Below the pieces are notes generated by a model that was given only the letters and a program-made list of their open reading frames with translations, had not been told where the DNA came from and ran no database searches. Below, in pieces: positions 17,095 through 17,355 of a stretch of 53,120 bases of DNA. A program made the translations under genes and the position numbers. The stretch's first letter is position 1, and each line of letters begins with the position of its first letter. The stretch is from Escherichia coli (GTDB taxonomy: Bacteria; Pseudomonadota; Gammaproteobacteria; Enterobacterales; Enterobacteriaceae), in NCBI RefSeq assembly GCF_003334255.1, contig NZ_QOWU01000036.1; one strand, given 5' to 3'.

Positions 17095-17152
17095 TTTTTA
17101 ACCTCAAGGTGAGACGTTTGCCGACTATAGTACGTCACAGAGCGGTACGGTG

Positions 17153-17172
17153 AAATTAGCAAAATGTGCAAA
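17153..17172 (-). promoter_or_regulatory. Candidate MarA/SoxS/Rob box upstream of mdaB
   Basis: Reverse strand reads TTTGCACATTTTGCTAAAT, fitting AYnGCACnnWnnRYYAAAY at 18/19 positions; a second TTAGCAAAA copy lies ~30 nt away. Confidence 0.45.
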
Positions 17173-17355
17173 GTCTTTTGCGAATTTAGCAAAAGTCTGA
17201 TCTTACTCTGACTCACCGATGCAGGATAAATATTTTCTGAAAATGACAATACTGATAGCCATTCCTCATAATTCTTACTCGCACCGGAATAATTTACACG
17301 TTTGGTTCGGTTTTTTTGGGGATTGAAAATATGGCTTTGAATAAGTAAAAGATGA

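Follow-up and report, generated by a model that had tools for sequence, protein, structure and literature searches.

A candidate composite promoter for mdaB-ygiN in Escherichia coli: a class II marbox inside a putative operator of the LysR-type regulator YafC

Two groups of described promoters bear on the control of mdaB, which encodes an NADPH:quinone oxidoreductase and is followed by the quinol monooxygenase gene ygiN: the class II promoters of the mar/sox/rob regulon and the CrgA-mdaB system of Neisseria meningitidis. To these we compare the region upstream of mdaB in a stretch of 53,120 nucleotides from E. coli (contig NZ_QOWU01000036.1), referred to below as the window. Class II mar/sox/rob promoters (fumC, inaA, micF, nfsA-ybjC, rfaY and lpxC P2) carry a single asymmetric marbox in forward orientation over a weak -35 element, centred at about -40 to -50, and respond to MarA, SoxS, Rob and RamA. 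At lpxC one marbox overlaps the core of the upstream promoter P1 and lies at class II distance from the downstream promoter P2 (Trigg, Sharma & Grainger 2025). CrgA, a LysR-type regulator, represses its own gene, activates mdaB, which is divergent from it, and produces a 63-bp DNase I footprint; the paper describing it gives, as the general LysR-type layout, an interrupted T-N11-A dyad upstream and a less conserved second site near -35.

We interpret the minus-strand region 17119-17196 as a composite promoter of mdaB-ygiN, in which the promoter-proximal half of an operator for YafC, the proposed enterobacterial counterpart of CrgA, became a class II marbox. The probability of this reading is put at roughly 0.6. 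Of its two parts, the marbox is in all likelihood real, and the dyad next to it is very probably a YafC binding site, as judged from sequence comparison. The mdaB-strand sequence from 17200 down to the mdaB ATG (17094) reads TCAGACTTTTGCTAAATTCGCAAAAGACTTTGCACATTTTGCTAATTTCACCGTACCGCTCTGTGACGTACTATAGTCGGCAAACG, and the 113 nt upstream of mdaB are the K-12 MG1655 sequence, with no differences. The elements of the region are:

17173-17196: interrupted dyad ACTTTTGC-TAAATTC-GCAAAAGAC, read on the mdaB strand, with the perfect core TTTTGC-N7-GCAAAA at 17176-17194; proposed YafC recognition site (RBS)
17153-17172, minus strand: class II marbox, 20-mer TTTGCACATTTTGCTAATTT, with recognition elements RE1 (GCAC, 17169-17166) and RE2 (GCTAAT, 17160-17155)
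17146-17161, minus strand: possible upstream minor promoter, with the extended -10-like TGCTAATTT (17161-17153) within RE2 of the marbox and a transcription start site (TSS) at 17146
17150-17155, minus strand: weak -35-like TTTCAC, TTTnAC-like in the alignment; the marbox runs over it with its 3' end, and 17 bp separate it from the -10 hexamer
17127-17132, minus strand: -10 hexamer TACTAT; the distance from the marbox to TAnnAT is exactly 20 bp in 81 sequences
17119-17120, minus strand: predicted start of the mdaB-ygiN transcript, placed from the -10 position and a conserved CAAAC
16168-17094, minus strand: the regulated operon mdaB-ygiN

Like the class II promoters, mdaB has a single forward marbox over a weak -35-like element, and it is a listed member of the regulon. 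Unlike them, its RE2 reads AAT (CAT or TAT in other genera) and not AAA, it has not been recovered by chromatin immunoprecipitation sequencing (ChIP-seq), and its marbox appears superimposed on a LysR-type operator. The resemblance to Neisseria lies in an orthologous regulator and target and in a dyad of the form ATTATT(G/T)C-N7-GCAAAAG followed by TTT. The two systems differ in that the E. coli regulator is unlinked (about 0.23 Mb, against about 3.17 Mb for mdaB, in K-12), that in Neisseria the distance between the dyad and the second CrgA site is about 10 bp greater, that Neisseria is without the marbox, and that E. coli adds dkgB as a likely target. A dyad upstream with a second site near -35 is shared with generic LysR-type promoters, and the TTGC-N7-GCAA core is found in the ilvY-ilvC control region too; unlike in those promoters, the position of the activation site (ABS) at mdaB is taken by a site for an unrelated monomeric activator of the AraC family.

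The upstream regions of mdaB from 80 species-level genomes (MdaB identity 86-100%) were aligned with that of the window, giving 81 sequences of Enterobacteriaceae, all distinct. They shared the pattern ATTATTGC - N7 (variable) - GCAAAAGAC - TTTGCACATTTTGCT(A/C/T)ATTT - 20 bp - TAnnAT, with at least 95% conservation over 22 consecutive columns. The arms of the dyad, which contains T-N11-A, were conserved to at least 95% and its N7 spacer was variable, so that the element common to the species is the inverted repeat TTGC-N7-GCAA, extended to TTTTGC-N7-GCAAAA in Escherichia. RE1 (GCAC) and the GC of RE2 were nearly invariant, and even the positions given as n in the marbox consensus were invariant. 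In the -10 hexamer T1 was conserved to 99% and A2 and T6 to 100%, and the distance from marbox to ATG was 58 nt in 65 of the 81 sequences. A block of 44 bp is near-invariant over 81 species, at a fixed spacing to the -10 hexamer, within a spacer that is otherwise unalignable. The conservation of the whole block is far above chance.

The two halves of this block part company in the outgroups. A position weight matrix (PWM) for the marbox was built from 32 MarA ChIP-seq sites that bind MarA in vitro (Sharma et al. 2017), and it scores the mdaB marbox at 13.9 bits in Escherichia, 11.4 in the Enterobacter type and 8.2 in the Klebsiella type. In Shimwellia, Tenebrionibacter and strain 4M9 the marbox segment has decayed to TTTGTACATTATTGTCATGT (-5.8 bits), TTTACCTGTTTCAGCCATTT (-14.0 bits) and TTTGCACACTTTATCGACTT (2.3 bits), respectively, and a PWM scan of these promoters detected no better marbox elsewhere. 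All three keep the dyad at the same distance from the ATG. Since the dyad is kept where the marbox segment decayed, it is an independent and more widely retained site and not a second marbox. Acinetobacter and a Neisseriaceae isolate (MdaB 78-79% identical) have neither dyad nor marbox.

The dyad is centred at 17185, about -65 from the predicted start. The window holds two perfect copies of TTTTGC-N7-GCAAAA where 0.03 would be expected; no shuffled sequence out of 100 reached two. The second copy, TTTTGC-GATTGAG-GCAAAA at 43309-43327, lies between yghW and hybO, 35-53 nt upstream of the start codon (43362) of hybO, which encodes the small subunit of hydrogenase 2; it may be another site for YafC or a chance occurrence. 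Two other assignments of the mdaB dyad were considered and rejected. A sigma-54 promoter reading of TTGCAC...TTGC has a GG/GC spacing two bases short, as judged by eye, and the LysR-type regulator PtrR/YneJ has an unrelated motif, its ChIP-exo paper mentioning mdaB only in a citation of MarA targets.

The assignment to YafC comes from the orthologous system. CrgA site 2, read as the reverse complement (GATTATTTC-ATTTGAC-GCAAAAGTG-TTT), aligns without gaps with the enterobacterial dyad and has one mismatch in an arm. The CrgA paper names YafC as the close E. coli homologue with 59% identity; in our comparison the proteins are 60% identical overall and about 80% identical in the DNA-binding region, with the recognition helix (ANSAVSR) and the wing (LLNRTTRQLSLTEEG) the same in both. 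A related arrangement was found on a contig (L088) whose MdaB is 81% identical to that of E. coli and which carries a divergent LysR-type gene, with the dyad ATTATTGC-TGTATGA-GCAAAAGAG at -101 from the mdaB ATG. The divergent regulator is a CrgA orthologue (PDB 3HHG, E=1.4e-113), passes the NCBIfam YafC equivalog (506.8 bits, cutoff 470) and is 75% identical to E. coli YafC, and its convergent aldo-keto-reductase neighbour is the same as in the dkgB-yafC arrangement of K-12. An adjacent divergent regulator is a feature of this contig and of Neisseria. The gene upstream of mdaB is qseC or ygiZ in E. coli and the further Enterobacteriaceae inspected, and their yafC lies at another place. YafC itself is 84-90% conserved across Enterobacteriaceae and Dickeya.

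On the YafC hypothesis, a dyad for autoregulation is expected at yafC and a site at the neighbouring target dkgB, and both were found. The E. coli yafC ATG is directly preceded by a perfect TTTTGC-AACAGGA-GCAAAA, whose spacer holds the Shine-Dalgarno sequence. This abutting dyad is perfect, with different spacers, in Dickeya and Citrobacter and has one mismatch in Lelliottia. About 98 bp upstream of dkgB, ATTATTGC-N7-GCAAAA is present in E. coli, Citrobacter and Dickeya. The 4-kb yafC locus holds two dyad matches with at most one mismatch, against 0.03 expected, and none of 200 shuffles reached two. In the yafC locus (L090) they lie at:

561-579 (K-12 U00096.3, about 229060-229078): dyad upstream of dkgB
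2383-2401 (K-12 U00096.3, about 230882-230900): dyad at yafC

The arrangement of the promoters agrees as well. Eight complete promoters were compared, those of mdaB from five lineages and of dkgB from three genera, and in all eight the layout of dyad, 3 nt, 20 bp, 20 bp and -10 hexamer was identical; counted from the first base of this hexamer, the dyad centre lay 58 bp upstream each time. We consider the chances about even that YafC is the enterobacterial counterpart of CrgA with a small regulon for quinone and carbonyl detoxification, acting through ATTATTGC-N7-GCAAAA at yafC, dkgB, mdaB-ygiN and possibly hybO, that the mdaB operator half turned into a class II marbox in the course of enterobacterial evolution, and that a single promoter integrates, by way of overlapping sites, a specific LysR-type signal with the global MarA/SoxS/Rob/RamA response. 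Papers from 2022 and 2025 still describe YafC as uncharacterised, and ChIP-exo and RNA-seq data for YafC exist (Gao et al. 2018). The accessible literature held no paper linking yafC to the regulation of mdaB in E. coli, and yafC and dkgB were named together in only one accessible paper, that on ExcludonFinder, which concerns overlapping transcription of neighbouring genes.

The strongest of the competing explanations keeps the marbox at 17153-17172 and has the dyad bound by another factor, or takes it for a conserved element, structural or UP-like, that has nothing to do with YafC. It accommodates the regulon membership and the class II geometry, the search gave no direct E. coli support for YafC binding, and the TTGC-N7-GCAA core alone is common, with 7 occurrences in the window against 2.4 expected and a further one in the ilvY-ilvC operator region. 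Against it, the conserved positions are G/C and not A/T tracts, and the extended dyad, although rare (0.03 expected), is found again at exactly yafC and dkgB. Moreover, the dyad matches the footprinted site of the YafC orthologue at the orthologous gene and adjoins the yafC orthologue on contig L088. We regard this explanation as unlikely.

The marbox itself is already known: mdaB is an established mar/sox/rob target and the 15-mer GCACATTTTGCTAAT is in the 2025 prediction table. The initial annotation had called a marbox at this place from a consensus fit of 18 of 19 positions and a duplicated motif. The call at 17153-17172 is supported, by the forward orientation, the class II position relative to the conserved -10 hexamer, the near-invariance of the site, regulon membership and the RamA dependence of mdaB in Salmonella. 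Its support does not come from the consensus score. The actual fit is 12 of the 14 specified positions of AYnGCACnnWnnRYYAAAYn, with T for A at positions 1 and 18. The quoted 19-mer does lie on the reverse strand at 17172-17154, but with one base wrong, the real sequence being TTTGCACATTTTGCTAATT (...GCTAATT); the quoted ending GCTAAAT is that of the upstream copy of TTAGCAAAA and not of the marbox.

As had been described, TTAGCAAAA occurs twice on the plus strand, 30 nt apart, at 17156-17164 and 17186-17194, as part of a repeat family (D2; GAAATTAGCAAAA / GAATTTAGCAAAA, 92%), and an imperfect palindrome GCAAAGTCTTTTGC lies at 17168-17181. The second copy is not a duplicated marbox motif, its TTA falling in the 7-bp spacer, which is free to vary between species. 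The apparent duplication consists of RE2 of the marbox and the distal arm of the dyad, and the palindrome of RE1 abutting the proximal arm. The observation behind the annotation is thus confirmed in part, and its interpretation is partly supported.

A related case arises in Table S2 of Trigg, Sharma & Grainger (2025), which predicts two mdaB marboxes, GCACATTTTGCTAAT and GCTAAATTCGCAAAA, each paired with the nearest TSS. A second tandem marbox at GCTAAATTCGCAAAA was rejected: the A6/C7 positions of its RE1 fall in the free spacer, and promoters without the true marbox still have the element. Its appearance in that screen is explained by the 6-10 bits that the dyad reaches as a pseudo-marbox.

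Sequence statistics alone neither support nor refute the marbox. The 15-mer has one mismatch to gcannwwntgnnaaa, for which up to two are allowed, and the window contains 18 consensus matches with at most two mismatches against 14.2 +/- 3.9 expected. The PWM scan that had been suggested as a check gave 13.9 bits, rank 15 of 33 among the ChIP sites, a value typical of true sites; the score is nevertheless uninformative, being reached by chance about twice per 53 kb (2 window sites at or above the mdaB marbox, 1.8 expected from Markov-simulated windows). Such a chance-level match agrees with the literature, in which thousands of non-functional marboxes are recorded. As a positive control, the known tolC/nudF marbox GCACGTAACGCCAAC (11609-11595, minus strand), identical to a ChIP-seq site of Sharma et al. 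(2017), scored 13.4 bits; it sits between tolC (10028-11548, minus strand) and nudF (11714-12343, plus strand). The highest PWM match in the window, GCAATGAATGCAAAA at 2868-2882 (minus strand, 14.4 bits), lies inside an open reading frame (ORF) of 837 aa and is probably due to chance, showing the low specificity of the motif.

Membership of mdaB in the mar/sox/rob regulon, also claimed in the initial annotation, is borne out by published citations and by RamA data. The gene is cited as a member of the mar regulon with reference to Martin & Rosner 2002 and elsewhere as a MarA target. In a Salmonella ramA knockout mdaB was down 3.2-fold, the largest change after ramA itself, and fell together with nfsA, acrAB, tolC, ybjC and yrbF.

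Several observations weigh against the composite promoter as we read it. By both consensus and PWM the marbox match is no better than chance; its position 16 varies (A/C/T), its position 18 is a conserved non-consensus T, and the common Klebsiella-type form reaches only 8.2 bits. mdaB is not among the 33 MarA ChIP-seq peaks in enterotoxigenic E. coli, a data set that misses fumC, zwf, inaA, sodA and fpr too, and it is missing from the EcoCyc list of MarA targets with 'high-quality evidence' used in 2025. The available portions of the text and supplement of a Salmonella study on MarA, SoxS, Rob and RamA contained no mention of mdaB. On the side of YafC, the accessible literature yielded no YafC-binding experiment on E. 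coli DNA, and the yafC-proximal dyad is degenerate in the sole Salmonella locus examined. Finally, the start near 17120 is our own placement, and the published TSSs closest to it are those at 17146 and 17194. A full-text literature search for the exact site sequences returned no paper.

Some of these observations would suit a different view, somewhat less probable still than an unrelated dyad, in which 17153-17196 is wholly a recognition and activation site for YafC, the likeness to a marbox is coincidental, and the effects of mar/sox/rob/ramA on mdaB are indirect. The segment has a positional homologue in the promoter-proximal part of the operators of contig L088 and Neisseria, TTTGCAC also occurs in CrgA site 1, and to the chance-level match and the missing ChIP-seq peaks is added the invariance of the n positions of the marbox. 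Yet the proximal segment varies without constraint in the outgroups and at dkgB, where the dyad is present but MarA-type sequence is not, and its PWM scores there run mostly from -6 to -16 bits, whereas in about 70 core species it is frozen at 8-14 bits. The covariation of mdaB with canonical marbox genes in the ramA knockout also speaks against this view, as does the direct activation of mdaB that Martin & Rosner (2002) reportedly described.

With the predicted start, the geometry of the proposed composite promoter would be that of class II, in which a forward marbox overlaps the -35 element and is centred at about -36 to -55 from the start: the mdaB marbox is in forward orientation and would be centred at -42.5 or -43.5 for a predicted start at 17120 or 17119. 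With the start at 17120 the centre-to-start distance is -42, compared with -39 (fumC), -41 (rfaY) and -49 (inaA) for verified class II promoters in Table S2 of Trigg et al. 2025. In that table the coordinates refer to the centres of the 15-mers and differ by 1978 bp from those of U00096.3. Its TSS-position column is inconsistent, listing -26 for mdaB where the coordinates give -16 and adding an extra -10 to many plus-strand upstream entries; all distances were therefore recomputed from coordinates. The mdaB promoter escaped a simple sigma-70 promoter scan, its -35 element being too weak.

The TSS published at U00096.2 3170500 (Trigg et al. 2025, Table S2) maps to 17146 in the window, 7 nt downstream of TGCTAATTT, which suggests a minor promoter that binding of a MarA-family protein would occlude. 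As at lpxC, one marbox would overlap the core of an upstream promoter and lie at class II distance from a downstream one, and in the same table both genes are paired with the nearer, overlapping TSS. Unlike lpxC, both mdaB promoters are putative, and the upstream one is unconserved outside the Escherichia-type sequence, because its hexamer would read TCATTT in most other genera. From this promoter comes a further explanation, that the marbox is mainly negative, MarA-family binding occluding the extended -10 of the promoter that starts at 17146. The published TSS has the correct -10 geometry, MarA represses pbpG from a core-promoter position, and one lpxC marbox overlaps P1 while activating P2. 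This explanation is nonetheless improbable: mdaB rises, and does not fall, with MarA-family activity, and the putative -10 is unconserved, unlike the downstream -10. Occlusion is also compatible with the composite promoter as a side effect. That the whole region is a chance resemblance with no regulatory function, as the random-expectation frequency of consensus and PWM matches might allow, is effectively refuted by the conservation of the 44-bp block over 81 species.

Returning to the composite promoter, we envisage an ancestral LysR-type layout with the dyad about 65 bp upstream of the start, a 20-bp proximal segment, 20 bp and the -10 hexamer (TACTAT). By orthology with the Neisseria CrgA-mdaB system, YafC would occupy the dyad at about -65 and reach over the proximal segment. 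It would activate mdaB-ygiN, and dkgB, under quinone or electrophile stress and repress its own gene; the same dyad at the yafC start codon is as expected for autoregulation. On this a second layer would have been superimposed, the proximal segment, at the LysR-type ABS position, having presumably become fixed as a class II marbox in the core Enterobacteriaceae. A monomer of MarA, SoxS, Rob or RamA at the marbox would recruit or stabilise RNA polymerase, and mdaB would therefore respond to mar/sox/rob/ramA. Overlap of the two sites would account for the invariant n positions of the marbox and might contribute to the absence of MarA from the ChIP-seq peaks. What the comparisons above show is the sequences with their spacings and conservation, the orthology, and the fact that the dyad recurs; the start site, the binding of YafC and of MarA-family proteins and the inducer are predictions from them.

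The surrounding features, placed for the genes ygiN and mdaB from ORFs and RefSeq annotation, are:

14228-16120, plus strand: parE
16168-16482, minus strand: ygiN, quinol monooxygenase
16513-17094, minus strand: mdaB, NADPH:quinone oxidoreductase
17102-17105, minus strand: Shine-Dalgarno sequence GAGG of mdaB; the GAG-G block before the ATG is kept in the alignment
17413-17745, plus strand: ygiZ
17791-19796, minus strand: qseCB

The gene pair encoding Flavodoxin_2 and ABM proteins is kept as far as Acinetobacter. The 318-bp spacer between mdaB and ygiZ had a match in all 5,426 of 5,426 complete E. coli genomes, covering at least 80% of its length in 3,322. Among the sampled E. coli with partial matches, it was always the ygiZ-proximal part that was lost or divergent, and the roughly 104 bp beside mdaB (17095-17198) were kept. 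In Klebsiella, Salmonella, Enterobacter and Citrobacter the stop codon of qseC lies 105-109 nt from the mdaB ATG, immediately before the dyad.

On the far side of the dyad, ygiZ and the ygiZ-proximal half of the spacer (17199-17745) appear to be an Escherichia-specific insertion, and that part of the spacer is variable or absent in about 2,100 of the 5,426 E. coli genomes. Just upstream of ygiZ lies a terminator-like element, a 13-bp inverted repeat (AAGTATCAACGTG / CATGTTGATACTT) at 17356-17382 with a run of T after it on the minus strand. A search of 16900-17500 against Rfam found no RNA family. In E. coli strain HCP30S3_I2 (NZ_CM149861.1) an IS1 insertion lies inside the region matching 16100-17800 (mdaB-ygiZ).

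The marbox adds nothing new; what gives this locus its value is the dyad beside it. That dyad is also a caution for marbox screens, as it was scored and listed as a pseudo-marbox on its own. It gives YafC a candidate operator sequence, candidate targets in three or four promoters and a biochemical theme, the NAD(P)H-dependent reduction of quinones and reactive carbonyls, and a candidate function of this uncharacterised regulator thereby becomes directly testable. The promoter would also be a clean example of regulatory layering: within the activation half-site of a LysR-type operator, a site arose for a monomeric activator of the AraC family. Such layering may account for the over-conservation of the mdaB marbox, and perhaps also for the failure of ChIP-seq to detect MarA at this promoter.

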